From positions 28,908 through 92,907 of IMG/VR virus record IMGVR_UViG_3300033121_002154: DNA of 64,000 nt; one strand, 5' to 3'. Of the stretch, positions 169 through 19,409 are shown piece by piece (position 1 is the first letter of the stretch; each line of letters opens with the position of its first letter). The notes beneath the pieces were generated by a model. The model did no database searches. It was not told where the DNA came from and was given only the letters and a program-made list of their open reading frames with translations. This stretch comes from a virus. Its lineage: Duplodnaviria; Caudoviricetes. The position numbers were made by a program, and so were the translations under genes.

Positions 169-1215
169 TTGAAAATTATTGGAAACCTACCTAATGTTGG
201 TAAATATCAAGTGGCTTATTTTGATAAAAACACTGATACTTTGATTACTTATAAAGGTACACATGCTGATCAAAATTTATTAAAAATTTTAAAAGATAAT
301 TCAATTTCTCGAGAATATTTTAATAAAGGTTTTATTGATCATTCTATTCAAGGTGGGTTTACGGATAATAAAGGAAAATTTTTTACTAATTCGGATAATA
401 CAAATTTGAAAAGAGAATCAAAAATAATCAAAGAAAGTCCTGATAAAATTTATAATACTGGTGCATTTTTAGTTGGTGCTTTTTCTCAGTCTAATTATTC
501 ATTTGGATATTTCCAAAATAAATTATTAATAGAAAAAGATTTAGTTCATTATCGAATATTTTATAAATATCTTACATCAAATTTAAAAAGCAATAAATTA
601 GATTTAATGAAAGCAAATCAATCATTTAATGTAAATGAGTATATTATAAATAAAAATGATTATTTTTTAATTGACAAAATTAAAACATTTATTTTAATTT
701 TTAATAATTTATCAAATAAATTTGATAAAAAAATAGAATTATCTGAGAAAAAAGGTTATGAAGTTTTTAAAAGCAGTACTGAAGTACCTAAAAGAATAAT
801 ATTCAAATTTTGTGGTAGATTTTGGCCAAAAGCAAAAGTAATTAGTTTTTGGATAAATCCAACAAAAACTGAATTAAAAAAATTAATTTTAGATATAAAA
901 AGAAAAGTTAATATAGAAATAACTGATGATTGGTTATTTGAATATGAAGAAGATAAATTAATTAAGCTTGGTGATTATCTTGGTCATGTAAGAAAAAATA
1001 CTGATATAGAAAAACAGCATACTGTTTCACCAATATTTAAAACAAAAAGAGATATTGAGGGGTTTGGTTCTGATAAATATAATAAACTTGCTAAAACAAT
1101 GAATTATGATAATACTGCTCAAATGAATTATTATCATAAAAATCAGTATTATAAATTTGAAGAAAAGAAATTAAAAAATTTTATTACAAAAATAATTATT
1201 GAATGTAAATTATGA
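169..1215 (+). CDS. hypothetical protein, probable virion protein
   Basis: 348 aa ORF; internal IIKE and C-terminal KLKNFITKIIIE motif resembling the leader of neighbouring genes. Confidence 0.6.
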   Translation: MKIIGNLPNVGKYQVAYFDKNTDTLITYKGTHADQNLLKILKDNSISREYFNKGFIDHSIQGGFTDNKGKFFTNSDNTNLKRESKIIKESPDKIYNTGAFLVGAFSQSNYSFGYFQNKLLIEKDLVHYRIFYKYLTSNLKSNKLDLMKANQSFNVNEYIINKNDYFLIDKIKTFILIFNNLSNKFDKKIELSEKKGYEVFKSSTEVPKRIIFKFCGRFWPKAKVISFWINPTKTELKKLILDIKRKVNIEITDDWLFEYEEDKLIKLGDYLGHVRKNTDIEKQHTVSPIFKTKRDIEGFGSDKYNKLAKTMNYDNTAQMNYYHKNQYYKFEEKKLKNFITKIIIECKL

Positions 1216-2204
1216 AATTAACTAAAATTATAAATGAATCAAATTTAATTAATATTCCAAGACAAATGCTTGGTGGAACTTTTGCATTTATTAAAGCCAG
1301 ATTTTTGACAATTTCTTATAAATATTCTATTGAATATCAAAAAGCTATTAATATAGAATATAAAAGAAAATCAAATTATGGAATTAAACAGATAAATCAA
1401 GAATTTAAAAAATTAGGTTTATTAACTTTAGAAAATAATAATGCAAAAGAATTTGAATTTTCTCATATGATATTTCCATTAAATTATCAAAAAAGATTAG
1501 AAAATATTAGCCCTTTAAAGTTACTTGTTATAACTTTTACAAAACTTTCACCAAAAGGGTATTATGTAAATGATAATATTGGTATTAAAATTGATCAAGT
1601 AATAAGAATAACTGTAGATAAAAATAAACATATTATGAGAAATCTTACTTATAGAGAATTTAATTTAAAAAAGACACATCAATATTCAATAAGTTTTTTT
1701 GAAAGAGATGCATTTACTTATTTAAAATCATTAAGTGAAACTCTTGAACATGAACTTACACATTTTATTGACTATAAATTAAGAAAAGCACAAAAAATTA
1801 GTAATATTGAAAAAGTTAGTGTTGACGCTAAAGATTTTATGGATTTTAATGTTGAAAAATATTTTCAATCAAAAACTGAATACAAAACTCAATTATTAAC
1901 ATCTTATAGAGGATTGATAAAATATTATGCTCATTATAAGATAACATATGAAAATTTATTTTCAGCATTTCAAGGTTTTCAGAATTCTATTATTTTACCA
2001 CATTGGAGTATATATTTAATATATAATGCCATATATCCACAGAAAATTGAAAAGATTTTAAAAACTATCTTAAATACTTTTTATAAGACCGGGAGATTAT
2101 TAAGAGATAATAAGAAAGAAAAAATTTACATGAAAAAATATATTAAAATTTTATTATCATATAATAAATTACTTAAAAAACAGAGAAATGACAAAACAAC
2201 TTAA
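1212..2204 (+). CDS. putative zincin metallopeptidase with N-terminal leader
   Basis: HELTH (HEXXH) followed by Y..S.TE; N-term MKLTKIINE. Confidence 0.6.
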   Translation: MKLTKIINESNLINIPRQMLGGTFAFIKARFLTISYKYSIEYQKAINIEYKRKSNYGIKQINQEFKKLGLLTLENNNAKEFEFSHMIFPLNYQKRLENISPLKLLVITFTKLSPKGYYVNDNIGIKIDQVIRITVDKNKHIMRNLTYREFNLKKTHQYSISFFERDAFTYLKSLSETLEHELTHFIDYKLRKAQKISNIEKVSVDAKDFMDFNVEKYFQSKTEYKTQLLTSYRGLIKYYAHYKITYENLFSAFQGFQNSIILPHWSIYLIYNAIYPQKIEKILKTILNTFYKTGRLLRDNKKEKIYMKKYIKILLSYNKLLKKQRNDKTT

Positions 2205-3384
2205 AAAATATATATTAGAAATTATCAATGAACAGTTTAATGAAAAAAGAATAATAAGTTCAACAGAAATTGCATATTTAAATAATTTCATTGATATAAT
2301 GAAAAGAATTTATGAATTAACTAAATCTTCTGATTTAAATGATTATAATCAATTTTTAATTTTTATTCAAAAAAATGTTCAAGCTTATCCATTTCTAAAC
2401 AAGGTAAAAAATATAATTAGTGATATTAAAAGAAAAGTTGCAAATTCTAAAACAGCTTCATCTAATTTAGATAAAAACGCAGAAATAATTATGAATTATC
2501 AGAGACAACTGGATTCATTTTTTGATAATTTAAAAAACAATAATTTAAGTCAATTAAATTCAGCATATGTAATAGCTCAAAAAATAAATCAAGTATTTAG
2601 TAAAGCAAAAATTGGAATGAGATATACTGACTTTGGTGAATATTCTAAATCAATTAAAGATATTTTTCAAATGAGCTCGATGGCAAATGCATTCTTTAGC
2701 GGTGGTAAAATTTCTCAATATATTGACGGATTTGATAAAAAAGATTGGGAAAATTTAATCAATTTAAAAATAAAATCCGGGAAAACAAATTTATCACAAC
2801 TTAAAAAATCAAGTGATTATACATATTACATTTATTTTATAAATTCATTAGATAAAGAAATTGAAGATTCTGAGATAGAAAGACAAATTAAGTTTAATTT
2901 TGAAGATGATCCACAATACAAAAATTTAGATAAATTAGTTAATGATTATCAACATTCAAATAATAAAAAATTAATTCCTGAAATATTAAAAGAAATGAAT
3001 AAATTTCCTCAATTAATTAAATATCATGAAAAACTAAAGAAACAACATACAGAATTATATAGAGGAATTCCTGTGAATGTTGATGAAAATGGTGTAAAAG
3101 AATATTCAATAGAACAAATAAAAAAGAAAGAAAAATCTCAACAATTTATTGCTACATCTAATTCTGATTATTCCGCTAAAAACTTTGCAAAATCAAAAGG
3201 GCATTTAGAATCTGTTGGCAGAACATCCGGATATCTTTTAACATATAATGTTACAAATCCAAAAGCTGTTGTATTAGATTTTAAAATTTTTGGTAGTTTA
3301 TTTTATGAAAATGAAATTTTAATTAATCCAAAATATGCAGTTCTTACAAACTATGAATATATTGATAAAGGGTATGAAGAATGA
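2188..3384 (+). CDS. putative R-S-E ADP-ribosyltransferase (Alt/ModA-like C-terminal domain)
   Basis: LYRG...ATSNS..SAKNFA...YENEILI motifs; N-term MTKQLKKYILEIINE. Confidence 0.65.
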   Translation: MTKQLKKYILEIINEQFNEKRIISSTEIAYLNNFIDIMKRIYELTKSSDLNDYNQFLIFIQKNVQAYPFLNKVKNIISDIKRKVANSKTASSNLDKNAEIIMNYQRQLDSFFDNLKNNNLSQLNSAYVIAQKINQVFSKAKIGMRYTDFGEYSKSIKDIFQMSSMANAFFSGGKISQYIDGFDKKDWENLINLKIKSGKTNLSQLKKSSDYTYYIYFINSLDKEIEDSEIERQIKFNFEDDPQYKNLDKLVNDYQHSNNKKLIPEILKEMNKFPQLIKYHEKLKKQHTELYRGIPVNVDENGVKEYSIEQIKKKEKSQQFIATSNSDYSAKNFAKSKGHLESVGRTSGYLLTYNVTNPKAVVLDFKIFGSLFYENEILINPKYAVLTNYEYIDKGYEE

Positions 3385-3709
3385 AAAATGAATTATATTT
3401 TTCCAGCAGAGCAATAAAAATTTACTCTGATGAACCTAATGAATATAGTATTAATAATTTTGATTTAAGAACTTTGATTATTGATAACAGTAATAATAGA
3501 AAAAAATGTATAGTAGAACTTGCAGAATTACAAAAAGAATTACAAAAAGAATTTAATAAAGTTTCTGAAATTTTTTCAAGTTATACAAAAACACTTGTTT
3601 CAAAATATGAAGTAGAAGCTGATAAAATTTTAAAAAAATATGAGTAAACAATCATTACAAGTTATGAATATATTGATAAAGGGTATGAAGAATGAAAAAT
3701 GAATTATAT
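3352..3709 (+). repeat. 47-bp exact direct repeat (3352-3398 and 3663-3709)
   Basis: tatgaatatattgataaagggtatgaagaatgaaaaatgaattatat occurs twice; a second 22-bp repeat at 3630-3651 and 3962-3983. Confidence 0.95.
3381..3647 (+). CDS. small helical protein, paralog of 3692-3979
   Basis: Shared MKNELY...KV.EIF..Y.KT...KILKKYE. Confidence 0.75.
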   Translation: MKNELYFSSRAIKIYSDEPNEYSINNFDLRTLIIDNSNNRKKCIVELAELQKELQKEFNKVSEIFSSYTKTLVSKYEVEADKILKKYE

Positions 3710-3979
3710 ATTTTTAATGGAATAATAAAATTTTATTTAGATGATGATAGCAGAGATAGCTATTTTGTTGGTTCATATGACAGTGATGATTTTCAAAAAA
3801 AAATCTGGAAAGAAATAAAAACTAATAATAAAGAAAAGGCTCTTTCTGAATATGACAGTTTGAAAAGCAGTTTACATAAAGAATATAGTAAAGTTGCAGA
3901 AATTTTTGCAAATTATATTAAAACAATTGTTATAAAGCATGATGTTGAAGGAAATAAAATCTTAAAAAAATATGAGTAA
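3692..3979 (+). CDS. small helical protein, paralog of 3381-3647
   Basis: Shared termini and C-terminal helix pattern. Confidence 0.75.
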   Translation: MKNELYIFNGIIKFYLDDDSRDSYFVGSYDSDDFQKKIWKEIKTNNKEKALSEYDSLKSSLHKEYSKVAEIFANYIKTIVIKHDVEGNKILKKYE

Positions 3980-4238
3980 ACAAACATTTGACGGATTAAT
4001 TATCAATGGGAGGTCTGATATAAAACTTGATTTTATTGATAAAAATATTAGAAATGTAATAAGAACAAGAAAATATAACATTTTAGATAATGATAGAAGA
4101 CATAAAATTGATGAAGAAATTTATAATATTGAAATCGAACTTGATAAAAAACTTCAAAAAATAGATTTTATATATGAATCTTATATTAAAACACTTTTTT
4201 CAGAATATAAATTAAGAATTGAACAAGCATTTAAATAA
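3972..4238 (+). CDS. small helical protein, paralog of 4259-4528
   Basis: F..LI.N.R.D...DF.D...E.Y.I...L..KL.K..FIY.S.IK.L..EYK. Confidence 0.75.
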   Translation: MSKQTFDGLIINGRSDIKLDFIDKNIRNVIRTRKYNILDNDRRHKIDEEIYNIEIELDKKLQKIDFIYESYIKTLFSEYKLRIEQAFK

Positions 4239-4258
4239 TAAATTTAAAAAATAAAAAT

Positions 4259-4528
4259 ATGAATGGAGCACAATTTAGAAGTTTAATAGTTAATAGAAGA
4301 CCAGATATGGATTTTGATTTTGTAGATACAAATTTAATAGATTCAATGCATGAAATGACTTGGGATATTGATGATAAAGTTAAAAAAGAAAAAATTCAAA
4401 ATGAATTATATGAAATTCAAAAGCAACTTTCAAATAAACTTGAAAAAGTAAATTTTATTTATCAGTCTTTTATAAAAGCATTAATTACTGAATATAAACA
4501 AAAGGGTGAAAAAGCTTTAAAACAATGA
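4259..4528 (+). CDS. small helical protein, paralog of 3972-4238
   Basis: Same pattern as 3972-4238. Confidence 0.75.
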   Translation: MNGAQFRSLIVNRRPDMDFDFVDTNLIDSMHEMTWDIDDKVKKEKIQNELYEIQKQLSNKLEKVNFIYQSFIKALITEYKQKGEKALKQ

Positions 4529-5985
4529 AAAAATTGAAAAAACTTCTTGATATAATTAATGAAAATAATGCAAAAAATGCTTATAATTTAATAAAAAATA
4601 TTATTAAAAATACTAAGTGGGATAATAGAATTTTTGCAGCAGGCGGATATGTTAGAGATGAACTTTTAAAAAATACATCAAAAGATTTAGATATTGTTGT
4701 AAATGCAGATAATGGCGGAATTGAATTTGCAGAATGGTTAGCAAAAAAACTTAAAATATATAAGGCAAATTCAAATCCAGTAGTCTTCAAAAATTTTGGA
4801 ACAGCTAAATTATCACTTAAAGGTATAAAATATAATGGTTATGATTTATCAGATTTTGAAGTAGAATTTGTTATGCCAAGAGGAGAAAAATATACGATTG
4901 GTTCAAGAAAACCAGAAGTTTATAAGAGTGATTTAAAACAAGATGCTTTACGAAGAGATTTAACTGTAAATTCTCTTTTTAAAAATTTGACAAATGATGA
5001 AATATTAGATTTAACAGGAAAAGGAATAACTGATTTAAAATTCGGTATAGCAAGAACTCCATTAAATAATCCCGATGAGACATTCAAAGACGACCCACTT
5101 AGGATGCTTAGGTTAATAAGATTTTCTTGTAAATACGGCTGGAAATTACCAAGATTTATGTTATTGGCTTTAAAGAAAAATGCACAAATGATTCAGCATA
5201 TTAGTAAAGAAAGAGTTAGAGATGAATTTGATAAAATTTTAATTTCACCCAATCCAGATAAAGGAATTAGATTGATTCAGTGGACGGGATTAAGTAAATG
5301 GATATTACCAGAATGGGATTCGTTAGTAGGATTAACTCAAAATAAATATCATAATCAAACTGTTGATAGACATATTTTAAGTGTTGTAAAAAATGTTCCA
5401 AGTCATTTAATAGCAAGATTAATTGCTGCATTTCATGATATTGGAAAAGCAGACACAAAAAGTGTTATTGATGGAGAAGTTCATTTTTATTTACATGAAG
5501 ACATTGGTGCTGATATTGCAGAAAAAATTATGAAAAGATTAAAATATCCTATTGATATAATTAATGCAGTCAAATTAGGAATTAAAAATCATATGAGATT
5601 AAAAGGCTCAGGAAATGAAGGTGAGATAATTTCTGATAAAGCTTTAAGAAAATTAAAATTTGAATTGGGAGAACATCTTGAAAATATTCTTGATGTCATG
5701 CATGCTGATAATATTTCTCATTCAGATGAACATAGTATGCCAAATCAGATTCCGGGTATAAGAAAAAGATTATCATCATTAAGTGATATACCAAAAAATC
5801 AGCATATTAAATTACCAGTGTCTGGAAATGATTTAATTATTATTTTTGGAGTAAGACCTGGGCCAATTATGAAAGAAATTTTGAAAGCAGTTGAAGATGA
5901 ATTCTTTAACAATCCAGATATGACAAGAGAAGAAGCATTACAAATAGTAAAAAATTTCATAGATGAATATAAATTTAAAAAATGA
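4525..5985 (+). CDS. cca: class II tRNA nucleotidyltransferase (CCA-adding enzyme) with HD domain
   Basis: GGYVRD..DLD, RRDLTVN, DDPLRMLR, SKERVRDE and HDIGK motifs; N-term MKKLKKLLDIINE. Confidence 0.92.
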   Translation: MKKLKKLLDIINENNAKNAYNLIKNIIKNTKWDNRIFAAGGYVRDELLKNTSKDLDIVVNADNGGIEFAEWLAKKLKIYKANSNPVVFKNFGTAKLSLKGIKYNGYDLSDFEVEFVMPRGEKYTIGSRKPEVYKSDLKQDALRRDLTVNSLFKNLTNDEILDLTGKGITDLKFGIARTPLNNPDETFKDDPLRMLRLIRFSCKYGWKLPRFMLLALKKNAQMIQHISKERVRDEFDKILISPNPDKGIRLIQWTGLSKWILPEWDSLVGLTQNKYHNQTVDRHILSVVKNVPSHLIARLIAAFHDIGKADTKSVIDGEVHFYLHEDIGADIAEKIMKRLKYPIDIINAVKLGIKNHMRLKGSGNEGEIISDKALRKLKFELGEHLENILDVMHADNISHSDEHSMPNQIPGIRKRLSSLSDIPKNQHIKLPVSGNDLIIIFGVRPGPIMKEILKAVEDEFFNNPDMTREEALQIVKNFIDEYKFKK

Positions 5986-6833
5986 AAAACTTAAAAAATT
6001 TAATTAAAGAATCATTTGCATTTTATGGTTCTTCAGAAAATCAAAAAAGTGCAATTAGAACCATTGAATCATGGCTTAAAAGAATAAATATGAAAATTAT
6101 AGGAGCATCACAATTTGGTGAACATGGAACAGTATCACTTGATTTAACAAAAAAGTATTCAGGAGAAATTTATGTTGGTGAAAATGGTTTTGGAGATAGC
6201 AAAGCCGATAGATCTTTCAAGGGTGGATATGGTCGTTTCGGGGGAAGCGTAGAAGTAAACGGAATCCCTATTCCAAATGAAAAAAGTTTTAATGAATTTA
6301 AAAAAGCTATTTTGGAATCTTTAGTAATTCAAAATGAATACAAAAAAATGAAATCATTATCATTAATACAAATATTAGAAACATATTATCATGGTCGAAG
6401 AGGAAAAATTATATTTGATGAAGATAAACCCATGTTTTTTGCCAAAGATAAAGAAACAGCTGATTGGTATTCTGATGCTCGGGGAAAAGGAGAATCAAAT
6501 ATTCTTGAAACTGATTTAGATATTAAAAAACCTTTTAAATTATACTCGAAGAAAGATGCCTTTAAATTTATAGAAATAATTAAAAGGGCAGGATTTGATA
6601 TAGTCATTGACTATAAAAAAGTAGGATGGGATATACCACAAAAATATACTCAACCTGTTAGAGATCATTCACCTTATGATGGAGAAAATTTAATTGATTG
6701 GATATATGTTCCTAAAGTAAAAGATCAATTAAAAAAAGAAGGATATGATGGGATATTAGCATATGATATTCTTGGAAATAAAGAAATTGAAATTGCCATT
6801 CCATTTTTTAAAAGACAAATAAAAAATTTATAA
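5982..6833 (+). CDS. two-module protein; C-terminal ART-PolyVal-like domain
   Basis: N-term MKNLKNLIKE; internal second leader MKSLSLIQILE followed by YYHG...FFA.DKE.A..Y...GYDGI. Confidence 0.55.
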   Translation: MKNLKNLIKESFAFYGSSENQKSAIRTIESWLKRINMKIIGASQFGEHGTVSLDLTKKYSGEIYVGENGFGDSKADRSFKGGYGRFGGSVEVNGIPIPNEKSFNEFKKAILESLVIQNEYKKMKSLSLIQILETYYHGRRGKIIFDEDKPMFFAKDKETADWYSDARGKGESNILETDLDIKKPFKLYSKKDAFKFIEIIKRAGFDIVIDYKKVGWDIPQKYTQPVRDHSPYDGENLIDWIYVPKVKDQLKKEGYDGILAYDILGNKEIEIAIPFFKRQIKNL

Positions 6834-6835
6834 AA

Positions 6836-7483
6836 ATGAAATTAAACATTATAATTGAGAATATTAATAAGCATAATTTATTTTTAGACATTATTTTAAA
6901 AAAAGCTAATGATTCTGGAATTAATATTAATAGTGCTAAATTAATATCAAAATCAAATAAAACATTTTCATTGGAGATTATTATCAGGAGAGAAATTGAT
7001 GCCAAACCTAATGAATTAAATAAAATTGAATTATTTAAAAAGTGGTTTTATGCACTTCTTAATAAAAACAAATATTTTATAGAAGATAATAATGAGTGGC
7101 TTACTGATACTGGTTTTCATGATGATTTATTTAGATTTGAAAAAAATAATGATGTTGCAATAAAAAAATTACCAAAATTTATTTATCATTTTACAACAGA
7201 AGAAAATTTAAAATCAATTCTTACTCATGGCTTAATTCCAAAAGCAAATAATAAAATTGAAAATCATCCGAAAAGAATTTTTTGTTTAACAACAAAAAAT
7301 AAAAAGTGGACATTTGAACAAAGTCTTTTATATCATTCTAAAACAAACTTCAATCATTTACGATTAATAAAAATTGATACATCAAAAATTAATAATAAAT
7401 TTTATTTAGACAATGATACAGTCGATGGAATATACACAAATACAAAAATTAATCCTATTGCATTGACATTAGCACATTTATAA
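6836..7483 (+). CDS. ART-fold (Tpt1/DUF952-like) protein
   Basis: IYHFT..ENLKSIL..GLIP...RIF...LIKID...Y...I.P. Confidence 0.55.
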   Translation: MKLNIIIENINKHNLFLDIILKKANDSGININSAKLISKSNKTFSLEIIIRREIDAKPNELNKIELFKKWFYALLNKNKYFIEDNNEWLTDTGFHDDLFRFEKNNDVAIKKLPKFIYHFTTEENLKSILTHGLIPKANNKIENHPKRIFCLTTKNKKWTFEQSLLYHSKTNFNHLRLIKIDTSKINNKFYLDNDTVDGIYTNTKINPIALTLAHL

Positions 7484-7496
7484 AAAGTTTTATAAA

Positions 7497-7916
7497 ATGA
7501 AATTAATCAAAATTCTTGAAAATTTAGATATTAGAGCTTATCCAAAGAAATTATATCACATTACTTTTGTAAATAATTGGAATAATGGAATTTTATGGGA
7601 TGGTTTAATTCCTCAGAAAACTACTAGAACAATTCATGATAAAAAACCAAAAATTTATTTTATTGACACTGATTTTAGTTGGCAATATTTAGCAGATGAT
7701 TTGGCGAAATATAATAAAGAAGATTATGCTTTATTATTAAAAGTTAATTTAAATAGTTTACCAAAAAATATTAAATTTTATGAAGATGAAGATTCAAATG
7801 GATATTATACTTATTCAAAAATTCCTAAGTCTGCAATATCTCATGTAGGTTCTTATAAAATTAATAGAGAATTTGATATCAATCCTTTTAATGGGAAAAA
7901 AACTTATTATAAATGA
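7497..7916 (+). CDS. ART-fold (Tpt1/DUF952-like) protein
   Basis: LYHIT...GL.P...KIYF...LLKV...YYT...IP..AI; N-term MKLIKILE. Confidence 0.55.
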   Translation: MKLIKILENLDIRAYPKKLYHITFVNNWNNGILWDGLIPQKTTRTIHDKKPKIYFIDTDFSWQYLADDLAKYNKEDYALLLKVNLNSLPKNIKFYEDEDSNGYYTYSKIPKSAISHVGSYKINREFDINPFNGKKTYYK

Positions 7917-9613: not shown

Positions 9614-10051
9614 ATGAAATTAAATCAATTAAAACTTTTAATTAAAAAAGTGATAAAAGAATCAAAAGCTTCTGATGAAGCTCATAAAAAGGGATTGGAA
9701 AGTGCTGGTTTTGGACATTGGAAAGACAAAAGTGGTAAGATAGTTGCCACAACTTCGGATGATAAACTTGTTTTTAATAAAAATAAAGATGATAAAAAAG
9801 AAAAAAGTGAACAAAAAAATGATGAGGATTTATTTAAAGTTGATAAAGAAGATAGATTATATAATGAAGATTTAGATGATAATGGTAATGAAATTTTAAA
9901 TTATGCTTCAAAAAAATATCCAAAAGTTGACACAAATATTTTAAAAAAGAGAGTTGAAAGAATGATGAATGATGATTATTATATTGATGATGATACTGGT
10001 TTTGTAGACAGAAAAAAGTTTAAAAATCGTTTAAATACTATATTTAAATAA
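9614..10051 (+). CDS. probable internal head protein
   Basis: N-term MKLNQLKLLIKKVIKE, then ASDEA.KKGL...GFG.W.D..G..VA motif recalled from T4-like phage proteins. Confidence 0.5.
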   Translation: MKLNQLKLLIKKVIKESKASDEAHKKGLESAGFGHWKDKSGKIVATTSDDKLVFNKNKDDKKEKSEQKNDEDLFKVDKEDRLYNEDLDDNGNEILNYASKKYPKVDTNILKKRVERMMNDDYYIDDDTGFVDRKKFKNRLNTIFK

Positions 10052-10052: not shown

Positions 10053-10847
10053 ATGACATTAAAAAAAATATTAAATGAATTGATATATGCCGAAAAAATT
10101 CCAAATGATTTATCAAAAATTTATTGGAAAAATGGTAGAATTGCATTTAGCACAGATGACATGACAATGTTATTTGATTCTATAATTTTTGGAGTTAACA
10201 AAGAATCAAAAGAATTATTTTATTATACAATGGATGATTGGTCTGAAATTCGTTCAATCAAGCATATTCAGCAAGCTTTAAAAGATTTAATACGTGCAAA
10301 AATTATTGATTTAACATGGATTGTAACAATTGAAAGTAAAAAAAATACAATACGTTCTTTAAATTCAAATAAAGTCAAAGACATAATAAATATTGATACA
10401 AATTTTAGTAATAAAATTCCATTTTGTTTTCATGGAACTTCCACAGAATATCTACCAGATATTTTAAAAAATGGTATTATTAATAGAAAAAATTCAAAAA
10501 CAAAACCAAACTGGGATAAAGGATATGTTGAAATATCTAAATATAACATTTATCTTACAATTGATTATCAACGTGCAGTTTATTACGCAAACAAAACAGT
10601 AGAAGCAAATAAAAATCAAGGAATAATTTCAAAGCCAATAGTTATAATGATCAAAGATTTAGATACTAAATTTGCAATAACTGATGATGATTATTTGACA
10701 CATAAAAATTTATCATTACTACAATATTTAAGAACAGGTAAGAAAGCAAAAGATAATTATATTCAGGGAATTCGTAATACATCACAATTTGCATATACAA
10801 AAAATATTCCTGCAAATAAAATTTATAAAGTATTTAAACGACATTAA
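10053..10847 (+). CDS. ART-fold (H-Y type) protein
   Basis: FHGTS...L.DILKNGI...IYLT....A..YA...IP; N-term MTLKKILNE. Confidence 0.6.
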   Translation: MTLKKILNELIYAEKIPNDLSKIYWKNGRIAFSTDDMTMLFDSIIFGVNKESKELFYYTMDDWSEIRSIKHIQQALKDLIRAKIIDLTWIVTIESKKNTIRSLNSNKVKDIINIDTNFSNKIPFCFHGTSTEYLPDILKNGIINRKNSKTKPNWDKGYVEISKYNIYLTIDYQRAVYYANKTVEANKNQGIISKPIVIMIKDLDTKFAITDDDYLTHKNLSLLQYLRTGKKAKDNYIQGIRNTSQFAYTKNIPANKIYKVFKRH

Positions 10848-11349: not shown

Positions 11350-12513
11350 ATGGATATATTAGATAAAAAAATAGAGAACCCAGAAACACATAGACAGATA
11401 AAATTAAGTACTGCATTACATCATGATAAAGATGATACAGTATATAAAACAGCCAAAAATATTATTGATAAAAGTAAAAAAGAAAAAAAACCAAAAAAAG
11501 AACCAAGTATTTTTATTAAAAAATATGGCAATTTAAAATTAAATGCATTTCCACCTGAAGATGTGAAAGAGGAAGATGTAAAAGTTAATACAGAAGGTGA
11601 CATTCATAGTCATGCTGTGTTAACTTGGCGTGATCCAAAAACTGGTCGTGCTGTAAATAGTTACACTCAAAAATTTATGAAAAGAAATGCAAAAATTAAA
11701 TGGGCTAGAATAAAAAAATTAAATAGCCATAAAGTTGAATCTATAATAAAAGAATCAAATGATGAATTAAATTCAGATGATCCCGAAATAAGTGATAGTG
11801 CTGCAATCATTTCTATAATTGCACAAACTGGATTAAGAATAGGTGATCATACCAATTATAATAGAACTAAAAATCGTGGTGTAATGACACTTGGTCCTGA
11901 AAATATAAAAATTGAAGACAATATAATTAAATTAAATTTTGTAGGTAAAAGTTATAAAGAAAACAATGCATCGATAAAAGATGAAAAATTAGCAAATTAT
12001 TTACAAAAAAGATTAAATGAAAATAAAGATAAAAATTTTATATTTGATACTGGGTATAATGAAGTAAATAGTTTATTTGATAAATTTGCTGGAAATAAAT
12101 TTAAAATCAAAGATTTAAGAACATATACTGCAACAACTATGGCAAAAAATATTCTCTTAAAAGATAAAACTCCACCGCCACCTTTGCCTGAAAATGATAG
12201 ACAAATAAAAAAAGCAATTAAGAAAAAATTATTAAATGTATTTGAACAAGTTAGCCAGAGATTAAATAATACACCAGCAATGGCAAAATCAAGTTATATT
12301 CATCCTGAAATTATTAATAAATGGTTAGCAACATTAGGTGTAAGAGAAGAATTAACAAAAGAAGTATATTCAGAAGGAAAAATATTTGTTAATTTATTAA
12401 CAGAAGAAAAGAAAAGTTCAACATTTAAAGTCACAAATGATTTTGAAGATTGTGATGAATATGAATTACCAAAATGGTGGAATGATGAAAATGTTAAATT
12501 AATTAAAAAATGA
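11350..12513 (+). CDS. DNA topoisomerase IB (bacterial/pox-type)
   Basis: TGLRIG, F.GK, KDLRT, NTP..AK.SYIHP catalytic set (R,K,R,N,Y). Confidence 0.9.
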   Translation: MDILDKKIENPETHRQIKLSTALHHDKDDTVYKTAKNIIDKSKKEKKPKKEPSIFIKKYGNLKLNAFPPEDVKEEDVKVNTEGDIHSHAVLTWRDPKTGRAVNSYTQKFMKRNAKIKWARIKKLNSHKVESIIKESNDELNSDDPEISDSAAIISIIAQTGLRIGDHTNYNRTKNRGVMTLGPENIKIEDNIIKLNFVGKSYKENNASIKDEKLANYLQKRLNENKDKNFIFDTGYNEVNSLFDKFAGNKFKIKDLRTYTATTMAKNILLKDKTPPPPLPENDRQIKKAIKKKLLNVFEQVSQRLNNTPAMAKSSYIHPEIINKWLATLGVREELTKEVYSEGKIFVNLLTEEKKSSTFKVTNDFEDCDEYELPKWWNDENVKLIKK

Positions 12514-13454
12514 AATTAATAAATATTTTAAATGAATTACGATATTTAGATTATCAAAAAGATATTGCTAATAATAAAATTTTAAAAGATAATGAAACAA
12601 TTTCAGTATTTCACGGGTTTGCTCAATTAAATCAAGCATTGTTAGCAATAAAATTTGGATTATCTGGTAAAGAAAATGCTGATAGAAGATATAGTTATGA
12701 ATATGGTAATAATCCTAAAGGTTTATTTGTAAGTGCAGATATTCAAACAATAATTCGCTCACATTTTGCAGGTAGCGGTGTCATCATTCAATTTTCAACA
12801 AAAGTAAAAAATCTTGAATCACCTGTTTGGGTAGGTGGAAGAAGTTACTTTGTTCAAGGTGAATATACAAAAAGTTTTAAAGATGATAATGAAAGAGAAG
12901 AACAAAGATTAAAAAATAGAGAAAGAGATAGTGCAAATATATATCCAACAATTTCAAAAAGTGATAGGCCTGAATTGGCACAAACATTATTTGATAATAT
13001 GGAACATCAAGCTTTGTTTATTGGACATTTAAATCCAAATATGATTAAGTATGTTTGGGTACATAAAAATTTAATGATTAACAAAAGAACAAGTGGAATA
13101 TGGAAGAAAATGCAACCAAAAGTATTTTTAAAAAAATATTTTGAATCAAATGCTAAATCAAAAACACAATCTTATAATAGAAAAACTCAAAAATGGGAAT
13201 ATGGAGAAGAGGATTATTCTGATGAATATTATAAACATTTAGATAAAATTTTTAAACCAAATGATGATTTTAATTTAAATAAAGTTAATGAATATTTTAA
13301 AAAACATAAATTTACAATAAGTGGAAATGAATATACATCTTTTACTCTAAATACATTTTTAAAATCTTTTTATCAAAGTAGAATTTATGAAGATTATATA
13401 GACAAAATGTTTTGGCCAAAACAAATTGAGCAAATTGAGCAACTTTTAAAATAA
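12510..13454 (+). CDS. possible ART-fold protein with N-terminal leader
   Basis: VFHG......GL...GLFVS...EHQALF; N-term MKLINILNE. Confidence 0.45.
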   Translation: MKLINILNELRYLDYQKDIANNKILKDNETISVFHGFAQLNQALLAIKFGLSGKENADRRYSYEYGNNPKGLFVSADIQTIIRSHFAGSGVIIQFSTKVKNLESPVWVGGRSYFVQGEYTKSFKDDNEREEQRLKNRERDSANIYPTISKSDRPELAQTLFDNMEHQALFIGHLNPNMIKYVWVHKNLMINKRTSGIWKKMQPKVFLKKYFESNAKSKTQSYNRKTQKWEYGEEDYSDEYYKHLDKIFKPNDDFNLNKVNEYFKKHKFTISGNEYTSFTLNTFLKSFYQSRIYEDYIDKMFWPKQIEQIEQLLK

Positions 13455-13516
13455 TTTAAATATTAAATTATAATATTTATATAAAAGTTTTTATTTTTTT
13501 AAATAAATTTTTAAAT

Positions 13517-13732: not shown

Positions 13733-14139
13733 TGATTAATACTTTATCAGTTGCTACAAGAAGGAAGCTTTGTTCAACACTTAAAAAGACATTATCAATA
13801 GCGGCATTTGGTTTACTTATACAACAAGATATTACTGAGCCAATTATTCAACAGGATGTAGTAACAAAAACTCATTATGGTGGCGGTGGTAATTCTGAAG
13901 TTAGAATAAAAAATAAAAATCAAAACCAAAAAGCAAAATTTTTATCTTTTAAAATTAAACTTAAAGGAACAAATAAATGGCAACATGTTGTATATGATAA
14001 CAAAGAAAATAATGATATATTATTTTTATTAATGAACAATCCATTGATAACGAAAGAAAATATAAAATTAAAATTTAATTTGAAAACATATGAAAATGAA
14101 AAAAAGTTTACTTTTACATTAAATCAGGGAAAAATATGA
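13732..14139 (+). CDS. hypothetical protein
   Basis: ORF coupled to neighbours. Confidence 0.55.
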   Translation: MINTLSVATRRKLCSTLKKTLSIAAFGLLIQQDITEPIIQQDVVTKTHYGGGGNSEVRIKNKNQNQKAKFLSFKIKLKGTNKWQHVVYDNKENNDILFLLMNNPLITKENIKLKFNLKTYENEKKFTFTLNQGKI

Positions 14140-14606
14140 AATTAGACATAACTGAAAAACAAAATATAGAGTTTGATTTACAATTTTCTGGAGCAGATTC
14201 AGATGAATTGAAACCAAGACTGGTTTTACATGAAAACAATTATTCTTTAGTCTTTGAAGGTAAATTAAGTAAAGGGAAATGTAATTTTTCATTACCTATA
14301 TTATCAAAAGTAATTCAAAGCAAAAAAATGCTTGCTGAAATTGAGGTGATTGTAGAAAATAAAATATATAAACCGTGGTCATCAGATATTGATATTGAGA
14401 GTCCAATTAATTTCAATATCAAAGAAAGTAACAATCAATCCAAACTTGATGTTGTATTTGAAAACATAAATGTAAAAAATGTATCAAAGATGATTAAGGT
14501 TAAAACCCCAAGAGGATTAAAAGAATACAAATTACTTAAGCGAGGTGAAAAAGAAATTATTGTTGAAGATAATAGAGGCAAAGAAAAAACAATAAAAATA
14601 AAATAA
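14136..14606 (+). CDS. hypothetical virion-region protein
   Basis: ORF; beta-rich with EIEVIVE..Y.PW. Confidence 0.6.
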   Translation: MKLDITEKQNIEFDLQFSGADSDELKPRLVLHENNYSLVFEGKLSKGKCNFSLPILSKVIQSKKMLAEIEVIVENKIYKPWSSDIDIESPINFNIKESNNQSKLDVVFENINVKNVSKMIKVKTPRGLKEYKLLKRGEKEIIVEDNRGKEKTIKIK

Positions 14607-14609
14607 TTT

Positions 14610-15101
14610 ATGATAATATTACAAAATGACTCAGAAAACCTTGAACAAACATTTGTTCGTAAAGGTTTAATTGCACATATTCCTATATTAATAGATGGGG
14701 AAACATATTGGGCAACAGACACTCAAACACTCCATGTTGGTCAAGCAGACGGAAAGAATAAAGTATTTTATCCTGGACAAATAGGTTATACAATTATAGA
14801 TGCAGTTGGTGAACCTATTCAGGTTGATTGTTCATTTAATATAAATTTTTATATTCCATTTTACGGTGATGGTGTTAGTAACTCTCAAGTTATGTTAAAT
14901 AATATGCCAGAAGGAAAGTGGATAACTGTAGTATCTGATAATTATGTACCTGGGTATGGTGAATATGAATTTATAGATGTAATATGGCCAACGGATGAGC
15001 CGACAGCTGATGATACACAAACATTTTTTTATTCTTTCATTAAATTTAATGGCAAAATTTTTGGAACCAGTAGAAAAAAATACCCATATACAGTACTTTA
15101 G
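14610..15101 (+). CDS. tail-fibre-like protein (N-terminal attachment motif)
   Basis: L.DGE.YWATDT.TL.VG resembles fibre N-terminal domains. Confidence 0.5.
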   Translation: MIILQNDSENLEQTFVRKGLIAHIPILIDGETYWATDTQTLHVGQADGKNKVFYPGQIGYTIIDAVGEPIQVDCSFNINFYIPFYGDGVSNSQVMLNNMPEGKWITVVSDNYVPGYGEYEFIDVIWPTDEPTADDTQTFFYSFIKFNGKIFGTSRKKYPYTVL

Positions 15102-18100
15102 TTTAACAATAATATTATTTTTAGCTTTATTTGTCAATGGAGTTGCACAGCCAATTTTTACTCCTCCGCAGCCAAATAGAACTGTAAAGAAATATTTTGT
15201 TAGTAAATTAGGAAATGATGCAAATAGTGGACTAACAGCTGGTACATCTTGGCAGACATTAGATAGAGTAAATAGACAAAGATTGTTTAGTGGTGATTCT
15301 GTTGTATTTAATGGTGGTGATACTATTTTAGGTTCTTTAAATTTAAATTCACAAAAAAATTCTCAATTTAATAATATTGATGTTAGTTCAGTATTACCAA
15401 TAAGTTTTAATAGTTATGGAACCGGAAAAGCAACATTAAAATGTGCAGATACATTATCTTATGTTGTTAAAATTACTTATTTAGCTAAAACAAAAATTAC
15501 ATTTAAAAATTTAAATTTCTTAGGTATTTATGATGCAGTATCTTATTCAGGCGGTAATAATTCAATTGGATATGGAATTGTAATTGATAATTATACAAGA
15601 AATTTTTATGTTGATAAAAATGGCATTAATATTTATCCCGGTTCAGGAGGATTGTTTAGTGTTGATTCTTGTAGATTTTCAAGGTTTAAAACTGCAGGAA
15701 TAGGATTAATAGTTGTATCACCATTAAAACAGGAAGCAACATTTAATATAACCTCAAATGATTTTGATAGTATTGGATTTACTGGAATTTATGGAATTGG
15801 AATTTATAGCTGCAATGTTAATATTACAAATAATAGCATTACAAATATAATTGGAAAAAATTCAACAGATAATTATTCTTCAGCAGGAATATTTTTTAAT
15901 AGAGTAAACAATGCTTCAATTCAATATAATTACATAAATAAAATTGGCATGAATAATCTTCAGTCATTTGGTGGAGTTTATATTGCTGGTTCATCAAATT
16001 GTGAAATAAGAAGAAATGAAATTAAAAATGTAAGAAATAAAACCGGAAGTGATGGGGCAGGAATATATTTTAATTGTCAATCTGATTCAAATTCAGCTGA
16101 ATATAATTACATTGCAAATTGTGAAACAGGTATAATTTTAAGTAATGCTACAAATAATTCTTGTCCAGATTGGCACACACCAGAAGATGAATTTGTTCAA
16201 TCATCTTATAATGTTGCTGCTTATAATATTATAATGATGGATTCCGGTGCAACAACTGGAATATCTTTATATAATTATCCCTATAGATCTGTATATACAA
16301 GATATGATGGTAGATTTCCAAAAAGAAATTTTATTTATAATAATTTACTTTATATAAAAAGATCCAAAGATATTGGACAATCTAATATGGATGATACTGC
16401 ATATTTTACTTGTGGTATTAGACAATTTGGATATAATGATTCAACATACATTTATAATAATATACTTTATTTAAAAGATTCAACTTTAGCAATTTCTACA
16501 GCACTTACACATTCATCTGATATAAGTGATTCATTAACTAATCAATGGGGCAATTTATTTACAAATTCAAAAATTTTAAATAACAATTATTATTTTGAAA
16601 ATGAAGATAGTACTTATAGATTTTCAGAACAATTAGGAACATTTGGACCTGCACCAAATTATTATCCGCTTTCAAGAAAATTTTTATATCCAACATATTG
16701 GTCTGATTCCACAAGTTCAGAAAAAGATGTTGATTATTTATATTCATATTATAATACTGATCCTGGTATAAAAAACATAACTCAAAATTTATCAGTGAAA
16801 ATAAATCCATATGAATTTGATACATTAACATGCTTTCAGATAACCGATATTTATTCCAATGTGCTCGGAAATGGCACAGATTTTAATACTGATATTCAAA
16901 AAATTGCAAATGTTTTATCACTTGATATTTATGGTAATGCAATACCACAACAACCTTCATTAGGTGTTTATCAAGGATATATTAGAACAAGACATTATTA
17001 TGTATCTTCTGCTGGCGATGATAATAATAGCGGGCTTTTAACCACAAGAAGCTTTAAAACTTTAACAAAAATCAGTACAATTAATCTTCATTCTGGTGAC
17101 ACAGTTTCATTTAAAGGTGGTGATATAATTTATGGTCAATATAATAAAACAATTGTTTTAAAAAATGACTCAAGTAAAATTGTGTTTAATAGTTATGGTA
17201 CCGGAAAAGCAACAATTGAGGCAATTGTTGGACAAGATAAAATATTTAATTTAAATTATAGCAAACAAATAAAATATGAATTTAAAAATCTTATTTTTAA
17301 AGGAGATTATGATGCATATAATCGCTCTGGAGATACATTAAATCAATATGGAATAATGTTCACAAATTCAGACAAAACAATTACACCAGAATGCAGTAAC
17401 TTTTATTTTAATATAGATAGTTGTGAATTTACTGGATTTAAAGTATCAGGATTATGTTTAATAAATAATAATTATTATATTAGAGGATATTTAAGAATAC
17501 AAAATTCTAATTTTCATGATATTGGTGTCAAAGGATTTGAAATTTATCGTATATATTATTCTGATTTTAAAGTTACAAATAACTCTATAACGAATATTTA
17601 TGGTAAGTGGGGAGGAACAACACCACATAGTTCTAATACATATAATTTATATGCTTATGCTACATATATAATTCAATCGAGAGGTTTGATAATTGATTCC
17701 AATTATGTAAATAATATTGGGAATTATGCTGCTGGTTGTGGGTTGTATGTTTCTGCCAGTAAAAGTGTAAAATTTCAACATAATGAAGTTAGAAATATAA
17801 AGACTATGACTGGTGTTGAGGGTCATAGTTTATATCAAGATTGTGGTAGTGATTCGGTTTTATTTGAATATAATTATTCACAAAATTCTTATCACGGTCT
17901 TTCACTTGCAGGTGGTGGTACAATATCATCAGGATATGATCCGATTTATTTCCCTGATGGGGTTGTTGAAGATAATATTGGTTCAAATAATAATATTGCA
18001 AGATATAATATTTTTATTATGGATTCAACAAGTCATTCAGCTGCAACATTATATTCTGCTGATACAAATTATAGACATGGTGATTATTCATATGCAACTC

Positions 18101-18726
18101 ACAACAATATGTTTTATAATAATTTAGTTTATGCAGGAATAGTTGGAACTCCGGATACGGCTGATGCAAAAGTATATCCATCTGGTATTACATCATTTGG
18201 TGGGCATGATTCTTTATATGTTTTTAATAATATTTTTATTCTGGATTCTGGAAGAGCATTTAGATTAGAACCCACATATAAAAGTGAACATGGGCAGACA
18301 ATAAATGCATTTATTCATAATAATATATATTGGGATGTAGACGGAACTCAAGATAAAATAATTTCACAATGGAGAAAAACAGGATGGACTTTAGTGACAT
18401 GGTTTCACTGGTTTGATAAAACTTTTAGCTCACTTACTGAATGGGCTGACTCAACGGGTTATGAAAAAAATGGTATGAGTTATACATTTATAAATACAAA
18501 TCCTAATATTAAAAATATAATGGCTAGAATTTATGGCACATCTGCAAGAATAAAATTACTTGATACATTAAATAATTTTAAACCATTACCAGGTTCTGTA
18601 GCATTTAATAGTGGAACAAACTATAATAATATTGTAAGATATTTGGGCCACGATACTGCAACATATGATTTTTATGGAAATATAATTGATGCAACAGATG
18701 ATATTGGAATATATTCATCACCATAA
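15049..18726 (+). CDS. large parallel beta-helix (pectin-lyase fold) protein, two tandem modules, signal-peptide-like N-terminus
   Basis: Two YxVSxxGxDxNSGL...SYGTGKAT modules; Asn-rich IxNNxI repeats; hydrophobic LTIILFLALFVNGVAQ; start at ATG 15049 is my choice over 14995. Confidence 0.75.
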   Translation: MAKFLEPVEKNTHIQYFSLTIILFLALFVNGVAQPIFTPPQPNRTVKKYFVSKLGNDANSGLTAGTSWQTLDRVNRQRLFSGDSVVFNGGDTILGSLNLNSQKNSQFNNIDVSSVLPISFNSYGTGKATLKCADTLSYVVKITYLAKTKITFKNLNFLGIYDAVSYSGGNNSIGYGIVIDNYTRNFYVDKNGINIYPGSGGLFSVDSCRFSRFKTAGIGLIVVSPLKQEATFNITSNDFDSIGFTGIYGIGIYSCNVNITNNSITNIIGKNSTDNYSSAGIFFNRVNNASIQYNYINKIGMNNLQSFGGVYIAGSSNCEIRRNEIKNVRNKTGSDGAGIYFNCQSDSNSAEYNYIANCETGIILSNATNNSCPDWHTPEDEFVQSSYNVAAYNIIMMDSGATTGISLYNYPYRSVYTRYDGRFPKRNFIYNNLLYIKRSKDIGQSNMDDTAYFTCGIRQFGYNDSTYIYNNILYLKDSTLAISTALTHSSDISDSLTNQWGNLFTNSKILNNNYYFENEDSTYRFSEQLGTFGPAPNYYPLSRKFLYPTYWSDSTSSEKDVDYLYSYYNTDPGIKNITQNLSVKINPYEFDTLTCFQITDIYSNVLGNGTDFNTDIQKIANVLSLDIYGNAIPQQPSLGVYQGYIRTRHYYVSSAGDDNNSGLLTTRSFKTLTKISTINLHSGDTVSFKGGDIIYGQYNKTIVLKNDSSKIVFNSYGTGKATIEAIVGQDKIFNLNYSKQIKYEFKNLIFKGDYDAYNRSGDTLNQYGIMFTNSDKTITPECSNFYFNIDSCEFTGFKVSGLCLINNNYYIRGYLRIQNSNFHDIGVKGFEIYRIYYSDFKVTNNSITNIYGKWGGTTPHSSNTYNLYAYATYIIQSRGLIIDSNYVNNIGNYAAGCGLYVSASKSVKFQHNEVRNIKTMTGVEGHSLYQDCGSDSVLFEYNYSQNSYHGLSLAGGGTISSGYDPIYFPDGVVEDNIGSNNNIARYNIFIMDSTSHSAATLYSADTNYRHGDYSYATHNNMFYNNLVYAGIVGTPDTADAKVYPSGITSFGGHDSLYVFNNIFILDSGRAFRLEPTYKSEHGQTINAFIHNNIYWDVDGTQDKIISQWRKTGWTLVTWFHWFDKTFSSLTEWADSTGYEKNGMSYTFINTNPNIKNIMARIYGTSARIKLLDTLNNFKPLPGSVAFNSGTNYNNIVRYLGHDTATYDFYGNIIDATDDIGIYSSP

Positions 18727-18779
18727 TAAAATTTCAAAATAATTTTTTATTGATTAAAAAATATAAAATATTTATTAAA

Positions 18780-19409
18780 ATGATAACTATAAAAAAAATA
18801 TTAAATGAAATTCTTTTAAATGAAGGAATGGAAAAAGATGCATTAGTAGATAATGCAAGTAAGGCTTTATTCAAAGTTATGAATAAATATGCTACTAAAG
18901 AAAATAGATATCAAGCCATATTATTGGTAATAATGCAAGCTATAGATTATAGATTAAATTCTGTAGATGATAGCTTTAAATATCTTCAATATATTGCACA
19001 TAACATTCTTCGTGGGGAAAATTTTCAATTGAATAATAATGCTATGGATATATTATTAGATAAAGAAAAAGTAAATTTGGATAAAAATGAAGATTTTAAT
19101 GAACATGATGAAATTTCATTAGATGGAATTGTAATAAATAATAGAACAAAAACTGTTAATTTTGGTGACAACCCTTCTATACAAATGCCAAATATTCAAT
19201 TTAAAATTTTATATTTCTTAATGTCTCATCCGGATGTATTTTATTCAAGACAATCAATATTAAAAAATGTTTGGGGTGATAGAGGATATGATGTCAATGA
19301 TAGAAATGTTGATGTTAAAATTTCACAATTAAAAGGATTTATGCCTAATGAATTCAAATCAAAAATAATTGGTAAAAAGAATATTGGATATAAGTTTGAT
19401 TCTAAATAG
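18780..19409 (+). CDS. OmpR/PhoB-type winged-helix DNA-binding protein lacking a receiver domain
   Basis: FKILYFLMSHP..FYSRQSILKNVWG....DRNVDVKISQL...GYKF (Trans_reg_C pattern); start MITIKKILNE. Confidence 0.85.
   Translation: MITIKKILNEILLNEGMEKDALVDNASKALFKVMNKYATKENRYQAILLVIMQAIDYRLNSVDDSFKYLQYIAHNILRGENFQLNNNAMDILLDKEKVNLDKNEDFNEHDEISLDGIVINNRTKTVNFGDNPSIQMPNIQFKILYFLMSHPDVFYSRQSILKNVWGDRGYDVNDRNVDVKISQLKGFMPNEFKSKIIGKKNIGYKFDSK

Follow-up and report, generated by a model that had tools for sequence, protein, structure and literature searches.

A shared N-terminal leader on some thirty genes of an uncultured T4-like phage is probably a capsid-targeting propeptide

Introduction

Proteins that are carried in a phage head and delivered to the host decide the first minutes of infection, and they are known for only a few cultured phages. 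In bacteriophage T4, the prohead protease gp21 cuts after (L/I)-x-Glu and takes N-terminal propeptides of 10-20 residues off the internal proteins (PMC5694885). Alt loses six residues through a cut at ITE-6 (PMC8442874), and gp23, the major capsid protein, has a propeptide 65 residues long (PMC5694885, PMC3012670, PMC8442874). The internal proteins of the T-even phages form a diverse set that has only the conserved capsid-targeting sequence (CTS) in common, and they have been read as counter-defence (PMC3012670). Here we analyze a window of 64,000 nucleotides, positions 28,908 to 92,907 of the IMG/VR virus record IMGVR_UViG_3300033121_002154 and hence the last 64 kb of a viral contig 92,907 bp long, in which otherwise unrelated genes begin with a short basic leader that ends in I/L-x-E. 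Genes with this leader are referred to as tagged.

Two further systems are related in part. In giant phages of the phiKZ/SPN3US type, an S80 protease is used and head ejection proteins are cut after (S/A/G)-x-Glu, with propeptides that often exceed 100 residues; N-terminal conservation between diverged paralogues has been read as targeting in these phages (PMC5694885). Polyvalent proteins, which are encoded by phages and conjugative elements and whose domains include the H-Y-D clade of ADP-ribosyltransferases (ARTs), are predicted to be packaged and to accompany the DNA on injection (Iyer et al. 2017; PMC5512222). CCA-adding enzymes are encoded by jumbo phages, in an account that does not mention packaging (PMC7824862).

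A first-pass annotation of the window had proposed that a portable tag of the T4 kind, removed by a gp21-type protease, loads a modular set of cargo proteins into the head. Our results make it probable that the leader is a capsid-targeting propeptide of the kind found on T4's internal proteins and on Alt, and they place most of the tagged genes in a single large island among the head genes.

Results

A leader concentrated on plus-strand genes

All ten N-termini quoted in the first-pass annotation are present in the sequence at the starts given for them; the start at 18780 is an ATG lying 30 nt within a longer TTG-started frame. The ten open reading frames (ORFs) are listed here in window coordinates, with a slash at the predicted cut and, where given, the score of the leader in the matrix described below.

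1212..2204, plus strand: tagged gene, 330 aa; leader MKLTKIINE/S, nt 1212-1238; score 12.7; HELTH (HExxH) in the body
2188..3384, plus strand: candidate R-S-ExE ADP-ribosyltransferase of the Alt/Mod type (C-terminal ~120 aa), 398 aa; leader MTKQLKKYILEIINE/QF, nt 2188-2232
4525..5985, plus strand: predicted CCA-adding/poly(A) polymerase-type class II nucleotidyltransferase with HD domain, 486 aa; leader MKKLKKLLDIINE/N, nt 4525-4563
5982..6833, plus strand: two-module cargo gene, 283 aa; leader MKNLKNLIKE/S, nt 5982-6011
6836..7483, plus strand: tagged gene, 215 aa; leader MKLNIIIE/N, nt 6836-6859; score 10.1
7497..7916, plus strand: tagged gene, 139 aa; leader MKLIKILE/N, nt 7497-7520; score 8.9
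9614..10051, plus strand: tagged gene, 145 aa; leader MKLNQLKLLIKKVIKE/S, nt 9614-9661; score 13.1; phrog_3561 (1.1e-9)
10053..10847, plus strand: tagged gene, 264 aa; leader MTLKKILNE/L, nt 10053-10079; score 12.7; FHGTS motif
12510..13454, plus strand: tagged gene, 314 aa; leader MKLINILNE/L, nt 12510-12536; score 11.3
18780..19409, plus strand: winged-helix protein, 209 aa; leader MITIKKILNE/I, nt 18780-18809; score 10.1; phrog_731

Genes were scored leave-one-out with a nine-column matrix anchored on the terminal Glu, and the threshold was set at the 99th percentile of internal windows of 18 residues. The ten window ORFs all exceed it and score between 8.9 and 14.1. Over the whole contig, the leader lies above threshold in 28 of 76 plus-strand genes, compared to 1 of 93 on the minus strand (Fisher p = 1.3e-10), so that the equal frequency among early minus-strand genes that would have spoken against a tag is not what is found. 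A six-frame scan, which is independent of the chosen starts, recovers the same set of leaders and adds one tagged gene at contig 23947 (L087:5947 onward), with the start MKITKSHLIRLIKE/Q; on the minus strand, it gives a single leader-like match behind a Met. The gene at contig 23947 had been concealed beneath a spurious minus-strand ORF. On the early strand, the one start that resembles the leader is MKAADLIFLIKE/SKKDG, in a small minus-strand ORF at window ~56722-56760. A detached leader, MKKLIQIINE/MK followed by a stop codon, is found at contig ~28334-28369 (L087:~10334-10369), just before a 233-aa ORF at contig 28371.

Altogether, 30 leaders of 8-19 residues are listed, every one of which ends in I/L-x-E, and the residue that follows the terminal Glu is mostly Gln, Ser or Asn. 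About 20 further tagged genes, whose consensus is the tighter MKITKKQLIKLIKE/Q, are found at contig 2.8-27 kb, upstream of the window; the tagged feature is larger than first noted, and the stretch at window 1212-19409 covers only part of it. The leaders are basic, with net charges of +1 to +4, and come in two length classes. Those of at least 12 residues mostly have a net charge of +3 to +4 and precede mature proteins with a median of ~100 aa, whereas those of at most 10 residues, with the consensus MKLxKILNE, have a net charge of ~+1 and precede mature proteins with a median of ~207 aa (Mann-Whitney p = 0.006 for the difference in size). The long leaders are located at contig 2.8-27 kb (L086, L087) and the short ones mostly at window 1212-18809. 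The mature tagged proteins are themselves mostly basic (pI ~9).

The leader is conserved as a peptide

Once the leaders are trimmed off, BLASTP at 1e-3 joins only two pairs among the bodies of the 30 tagged proteins, and paralogy was rejected as the origin of the common start. The 13 long leaders have a mutual protein identity of 71%; at their identical residues, codon identity is 62%, compared to 65% expected from the codon usage of the genome, and the DNA that precedes the tagged start codons is not conserved. There is therefore no homogenization at the nucleotide level, and a DNA-level repeat or gene conversion was likewise rejected. Selection acts on the leader peptide and not on the DNA.

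These comparisons bear on the view that the common start is no protein signal at all, but a by-product of A+T richness, a translation-initiation context or a recombination repeat. The contig has a G+C content of only 21-27%, and MK starts are frequent on both strands, as this view would have it. However, on either strand 5-8% of internal windows contain the loose motif [ILV][ILV]xE, and A+T richness therefore fails to explain the pattern. Minus-strand genes of the same composition go almost entirely without the leader, and a composition artefact was rejected on these two counts. In addition, the codon identity stays at the level of codon usage, the upstream DNA differs, and the tag is kept in orthologues from phages of 29-49% G+C. 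We regard an origin other than a protein signal as extremely improbable.

The leader ends in a motif shared with the capsid protein and the scaffold

The contig, whose completeness is estimated at ~44% of a genome, consists of a single plus-strand block of ~50 kb that holds the head genes, and a remainder that forms a minus-strand block of small early-type genes. The tagged genes are co-oriented with, and adjacent to, the following head genes.

Plus-strand head block of the contig: T4-type terminase fragment
Plus-strand head block of the contig: gp20 portal
Contig 15319-15963, plus strand: prohead protease, Peptidase_S77 (gp21-type); PF03420, E 6e-28, over cut-off
Window 19707..20807, plus strand: scaffold (gp22 analogue), 366 aa; starts MNKSNSNLAKAINE/A; acidic repeats DIDLDDEDISE/Q
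Window 20870..22606, plus strand: major capsid protein of the gp23 family, 578 aa; Pfam Gp23, 3.3e-71

Among cultured phages, Flavobacterium phage vB_FspM_immuto has the closest capsid protein (43.5% identity), and the identity to T-even-type phages is 24%; these values point to a distant, uncultured T4-like phage. A megablast search of window 1-20000 against cultured phages gave zero matches, and the protease as a single-sequence query against viral contigs found no relative.

The S77 protease is 32% identical to T4 gp21. Its stretches GELDHP and SSRGVGS, which we take to hold catalytic residues, align with GELNHP and SSRGLGS of gp21. The recurrence of L/I-x-E in the scaffold and at QLNE of the capsid protein, pointed out in the first-pass annotation, is confirmed. 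QLNE ends at Glu66, and in an alignment with relatives LNE-66/S falls in the same column as LTE-65/A of T4 gp23, which is the known maturation cut and at which the relatives have VSE/A and VTE/T or VTE/S. The predicted capsid propeptide comprises residues 1-66 (nt 20870-21067), ending LNE/S. In the scaffold, 18 [LIVM]xE motifs are found in 366 aa, which amounts to 4.9 per 100 aa compared to 1.87 genome-wide (2.6-fold); they are mainly ISE/Q or IVE/Q, and the Gln after the Glu matches the long leaders. The scaffold is also strongly acidic. The basic, weakly amphipathic leaders fit binding to such an acidic core, a step that we infer.

The leader could instead be recognized by another partner, such as a modifying enzyme of the radical-SAM type or a chaperone, or serve as a membrane or localization signal, and short basic amphipathic helices are indeed able to bind membranes. 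Yet the contig (~44% of a genome) shows no radical-SAM domain, the tag ends in the S77 motif, which is also that of the capsid maturation site, the tagged genes lie between protease and scaffold, and an S77 protease is present in all of the long records from other phages that were checked. We therefore consider recognition by such a partner very unlikely.

An island of tagged genes between protease and scaffold

The T4 gene order is 20-67-68-21-22-23. In the present phage, the gap between protease and scaffold measures 32,654 bp and contains 47 plus-strand ORFs, 24 of which are tagged, or 25 if the one at contig 23947 is counted; the scaffold gene is the 3' boundary of this cargo island. In phage immuto this gap contains two ORFs (75 and 30 aa), and metagenomic relatives have none to five ORFs there, some of them tagged (for example, MIKFVDILNE/L and MKLLSILKNIILE/A). 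With the gap near-empty or partly tagged in relatives, it is therefore a conserved insertion site for variable cargo, which is greatly expanded in the present phage. Leader-like starts are also found on genes of phage immuto (MKKSQLRQIIKE/A, MKKLIRIVE/A and MKKSQIVKAVQE/V). In the capsid-gene surroundings of 80 relatives, the motif reaches 26% compared to 9%, a difference that is inflated by conserved core head genes and does not count as independent evidence.

Immediately upstream of the protease come two tagged genes, at the place that genes 67 and 68 occupy in T4. This position would suit a reading in which the leader is a cleavable propeptide or an element of core assembly and the tagged proteins are not delivered, being core parts that are degraded or expelled, or zymogens that are inactive in the producing cell. 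T4 gp67, gp68 and gp22 carry gp21 sites and are destroyed (PMC5694885), and many of the long-leader proteins are small (55-162 aa) and clustered beside the protease. The larger tagged proteins, however, are predicted enzymes and factors with host-cell targets (the CCA/HD enzyme, the ARTs and the DNA-binding factor), and T4 Alt, an ART that is packaged and injected, is a direct precedent for delivery (PMC5512222). Moreover, the matrix scan, which covers leader-like sites and not the density of the minimal (I/L)-x-E motif, finds strong internal sites in the tagged bodies only at the joint of the 5982 ORF and near the C-terminus of a 72-aa protein at contig 25998. We judge the non-delivery reading to be unlikely, but it is the serious residual alternative to a capsid-targeting propeptide, especially for the small proteins beside the protease.

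The island also contains untagged genes, among them the following.

Window 11350-12513: eukaryotic-type topoisomerase IB, untagged; Pfam 2.1e-20
Contig 19187 (L087:1187-1720): NUDIX hydrolase, untagged; Pfam 7e-18
Window 14995-18726: untagged ORF of 1243 aa, with no match in Pfam and PHROG searches
Window 3381-4528: four small untagged ORFs (88-95 aa) amid tagged genes

By their starts, the four small ORFs resemble two paralogous pairs, with MKNELY... occurring twice and M..Q(T)F..LI(I/V)N(G/R)R..D... twice. In phage immuto, the gene between protease and capsid protein (L005:18728-19969; MW353176, immuto35A_203) is annotated as a 'DNA polymerase phi-like protein'; its position and its similarity to the present scaffold (E 1e-11) identify it as the predicted scaffold protein.

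Predicted cargo: a CCA enzyme and a winged-helix factor

Two of the proposed cargo enzymes and factors are borne out by Pfam domains over cut-off. The 4525 ORF matches PolyA_pol (3.4e-20), PolyA_pol_RNAbd, HD and tRNA_NucTran2_2, all over cut-off, it contains the GGYVRD and DLD motifs, and CCA enzymes are nearest to it among solved structures (8e-36). The prediction of a class II nucleotidyltransferase is firm, and both CCA and poly(A) addition are compatible with it. Solved cellular CCA enzymes align to this ORF only from its residue 18-35 onward, and the leader therefore lies outside the conserved core of the CCA enzyme. This bears in part on the expectation that cellular Cca homologues lack the leader; the top 120 homologues all look phage-borne and tagged.

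The 18780 ORF has a C-terminal OmpR/PhoB-type domain (Trans_reg_C, PF00486, 3e-13, over cut-off; residues 134-206). Pfam found no receiver domain in it, and a word-indexed search found no homologue.

Predicted cargo: ADP-ribosyltransferase candidates

The 2188 ORF and its two orthologues, which are 39-42% identical as a set of three, have invariant R292 (in YRG), T323-S324 and E374-x-E376, which follow the order of the Arg, Ser-Thr-Ser and Glu-x-Glu motifs in R-S-E enzymes of the Alt/Mod/VIP2 type. The orthologues start MKKISE/QF, which aligns on EIINE/QF of the present leader. Pfam gives zero matches, and the Atlas neighbours are ADPrib_exo_Tox clusters (0.90). In an AlphaFold2 (AF2) model built from the three sequences, residues 280-398 (pLDDT 70-87) have structural matches that are all ART folds, with Z of 4.9-7.1; residues 1-230 are unusable, and the helical N-terminal part matches generic helices only.

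The second candidate, the 5982 ORF, has an entire internal leader, MKSLSLIQILE/T, at the joint of its two modules (residues 123-133, nt 6348-6380), Met included, and an ART-PolyVal-like domain (residues ~134-283) follows directly. Among its 184 homologues, the two modules are found as separate genes elsewhere, and standalone homologues of the ART domain mostly have a short leader of their own, ending hydrophobic-x-Glu just ahead of YHG. The ORF thus looks like two adjacent tagged genes that have fused, and the joint is likely to be an internal site of the protease. The domain is also homologous to domains within polyvalent proteins of up to ~5000 aa, which makes the earlier comparison of the cargo set to a polyvalent protein split into tagged genes an apt one. 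Its AF2 model has a mean pLDDT of 92, and Foldseek places the cyanophage A4 pre-ejectosome at the top, with AcrIF11, tankyrases, ParT, MbcT and diphtheria toxin after it, all of them ART folds, at TM ~0.4. His15, Asp134 and Asp140 of the domain are invariant, and the strand-1 His and the late-strand acidic residue of the ART fold are both in place. The match to Pfam ART-PolyVal (PF18760), the family of the ART-PolyVal/Tox-ART-HYD2 clade, is 25.3 bits, below the cut-off of 31.2, with 7 of 25 homologues at E < 0.001. We name the domain ART-PolyVal-like with moderate confidence, and it is with the same moderate confidence that two ART clades, those of the 2188 and 5982 ORFs, are counted among the cargo.

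Other tagged genes

The idea of a modular cargo set thus stands where the CCA enzyme and the winged-helix protein are concerned, and moderately for the two ART clades, but the 'peptidase' named alongside them, which would be a zincin-type metallopeptidase, is a doubtful call from the HELTH motif of the 1212 ORF and weak leads. For this ORF, Pfam and PHROG searches gave no match, the nearest Atlas clusters are unnamed viral proteins, and SprT/LPD clusters lie below 0.9, SprT-like at 0.83, which is under lead level. Over its C-terminal half, the 6836 ORF is a paralogue of the 7497 ORF (BLASTP, 30% identity, E 1.4e-6); the 6836 ORF is a weak candidate for a Tpt1/KptA-like ART fold (Pfam PTS_2-RNA, E 0.0038, below cut-off). 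The 10053 ORF has PHROG matches only to families of unknown function, the 12510 ORF has none in Pfam and PHROG, and most of the cargo proteins have nothing in Pfam or PHROGs.

In the 9614 ORF, the leader is followed by a conserved module of ~30 aa, EAHKKGLESAGFGHWKDKSG (residues ~20-50). Two genes of the present phage carry this module, EEAHKKGLESAGFG(H/N)WKDKSG..VA, directly behind the predicted cut, the second copy being in an ORF at contig 24786 (L087:6786-7991; residues ~100-135), behind the internal leader-like IRKFLLQE/S. In other phages, CCA homologues that bear an insertion have a related module behind their leader (P0031, P0035, P0037, P0079 and P0090). At the N-terminus of the mature protein, the module could act in retention or binding.

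The tag in other phages

The CCA family provides a view of the tag beyond the present phage. It has 2635 homologues at E <= 1e-10, is encoded on at least 283 viral contigs, several of 200-365 kb, and its top 120 members are 50-79% identical to the 4525 ORF. Their N-termini read MIKLKxLLxE[G/S/A] and variants thereof. A hydrophobic-hydrophobic-x-Glu sequence precedes GGxxRD in 104 of the 119 top homologues, at a distance of exactly 27 residues in 80, and the leader Glu (Glu13) is invariant in an alignment of 23 sequences.

The genes around these CCA genes are tagged as well. At the CCA loci, the motif is found in the first 24 residues of 15.6% of the genes, compared to 2.8% of internal windows, and neighbours share a lineage-specific leader: MIKLK... 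in loci L096, L102 and L168, and MKYTDYYxxLLxE, which resembles T4 MKTYQEFIAE, in L131. With the CCA gene excluded, the identity over leader residues 2-8 is 0.27 within a genome, a value perhaps inflated by near-duplicate loci and local paralogues, and 0.19 between genomes; none of 500 label permutations reaches the observed value. Starts of the form MIKL[KR] number 7-11 per record in three of four records and 2 in the fourth, a 32.5-kb fragment, compared to 0-1 for a control pattern. An S77 protease is encoded in all three tagged-CCA records of sufficient length, the two without one being fragments of 14% and 22% completeness.

MIKLK is the common form of the leader elsewhere. A degenerate DNA pattern of the long leader matches on three other contigs only, and the exact long consensus is therefore rare outside the present phage. 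Literature searches turned up neither phage papers that show MIKLK or MKITK leaders nor virion proteomics of phage immuto.

Discussion

We have described a leader that probably targets its proteins to the capsid and is probably removed there. The portable tag of the T4 style, its removal by a gp21-type protease and the modular cargo, as originally proposed, are favoured by the S77 protease, the (I/L)-x-E end of the leader, the homologous site in the capsid protein, the motif-rich scaffold, the strand bias, and conservation at the protein level and in orthologues. On this basis, the phage probably loads an unusually large kit of enzymes into its capsid for entry into the host with the DNA.

The steps envisaged are as follows. 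During prohead assembly, the tag would bind its protein to the very acidic scaffold core, and the capsid shell would then close around the core. The gp21-type serine protease would cut after the Glu of the tag, and would also cut at this motif in the propeptide of the capsid protein and break the scaffold down into small peptides. The mature proteins would remain inside with the DNA and, as a further step, would enter the host along with it. Activation of the cargo by this cleavage, which the first-pass annotation also put forward, finds no support here. The load would comprise a CCA-adding/HD enzyme for the repair of tRNA 3' ends, two ART clades, a winged-helix factor and many small basic proteins.

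Several observations weigh against this picture. Apart from the Met-Lys start and the hydrophobic-x-Glu end, the leader has nothing in common with the T4 CTS MKTYQEFIAE, and the two do not show sequence similarity; the tag would work as the T4 CTS does, but it is of a different sequence family. The helical amphipathicity of the leaders is modest (mean z = 1.15 compared to shuffles), and Leu or Ile follows the Glu in three of the window leaders. Around half of the island genes, including the type IB topoisomerase and the NUDIX enzyme, are untagged, and some of the small tagged proteins could be degradable components of the core rather than delivered effectors. Finally, the phage is uncultured, the contig covers only ~44% of its genome, and the role of the tag is predicted from sequence.

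With less than even confidence, we suggest that this may be the largest set of separately tagged capsid cargo in a T4-type phage, with at least 30 proteins and a hot spot of 32.7 kb, most of the proteins being packaged and delivered. If the CCA enzyme is packaged, virion-delivered repair of tRNA 3' ends would be a widespread form of counter-defence that is not described in the literature searched. Copy number or loading order would be set by the two tag classes, of which the long, basic one is on small proteins and the short one on enzymes. Provided that the tag rule is valid, the proteins that uncultured T4-like phages inject could be predicted from sequence. These repertoires look large and rich in enzymes, spanning the repair of tRNA ends, several ADP-ribosyltransferases and a DNA-binding factor. 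The tag is also a potential short, natural packaging signal for foreign proteins in capsids, a use that the T4 CTS already serves.

Comparison with known systems

The proposed mechanism is not new, since it is that of the T4 capsid-targeting sequence. What differs is the sequence family of the leader, the number of tagged genes, their concentration in a single island, the two length classes, and the large, almost uniformly tagged CCA family. As in T4, a short N-terminal leader ending in (L/I)-x-Glu is found on unrelated proteins, together with a gp21-type S77 protease, a gp23 propeptide with a homologous site and a gp22-like scaffold, and an ART is among the predicted cargo, as Alt is in T4. 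Unlike in T4, the leader is basic and unrelated to MKTYQEFIAE, it comes in two length classes, and some 30 genes carry it, compared to the four (IPI-III and Alt) named for T4 in the literature consulted. The predicted cargo here also includes a CCA/HD enzyme and a winged-helix factor. A single island of 32.7 kb lies where the T4 scaffold gene directly follows the protease gene; the T4 IP and alt genes are situated elsewhere in the T4 genome.

With the T-even internal proteins as a group, the present system has in common one conserved targeting peptide on cargo that is exchangeable and varies between lineages. It differs in being found in a distant lineage, in its far larger scale, and in that enzymes are carried rather than mostly small inhibitor proteins. 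The phiKZ/SPN3US-type phages likewise process many head-internal proteins, including enzymes, after the Glu of a short motif, but the leaders here are of 8-19 residues, the motif is (I/L)-x-Glu and the protease is of the T4 S77 type. Polyvalent proteins, lastly, contain the same kinds of domains, some of which are homologues of the 5982 ORF's ART domain; the domains here are mostly encoded by separate genes, each with its own tag, and only the 5982 ORF is a chain of two modules.

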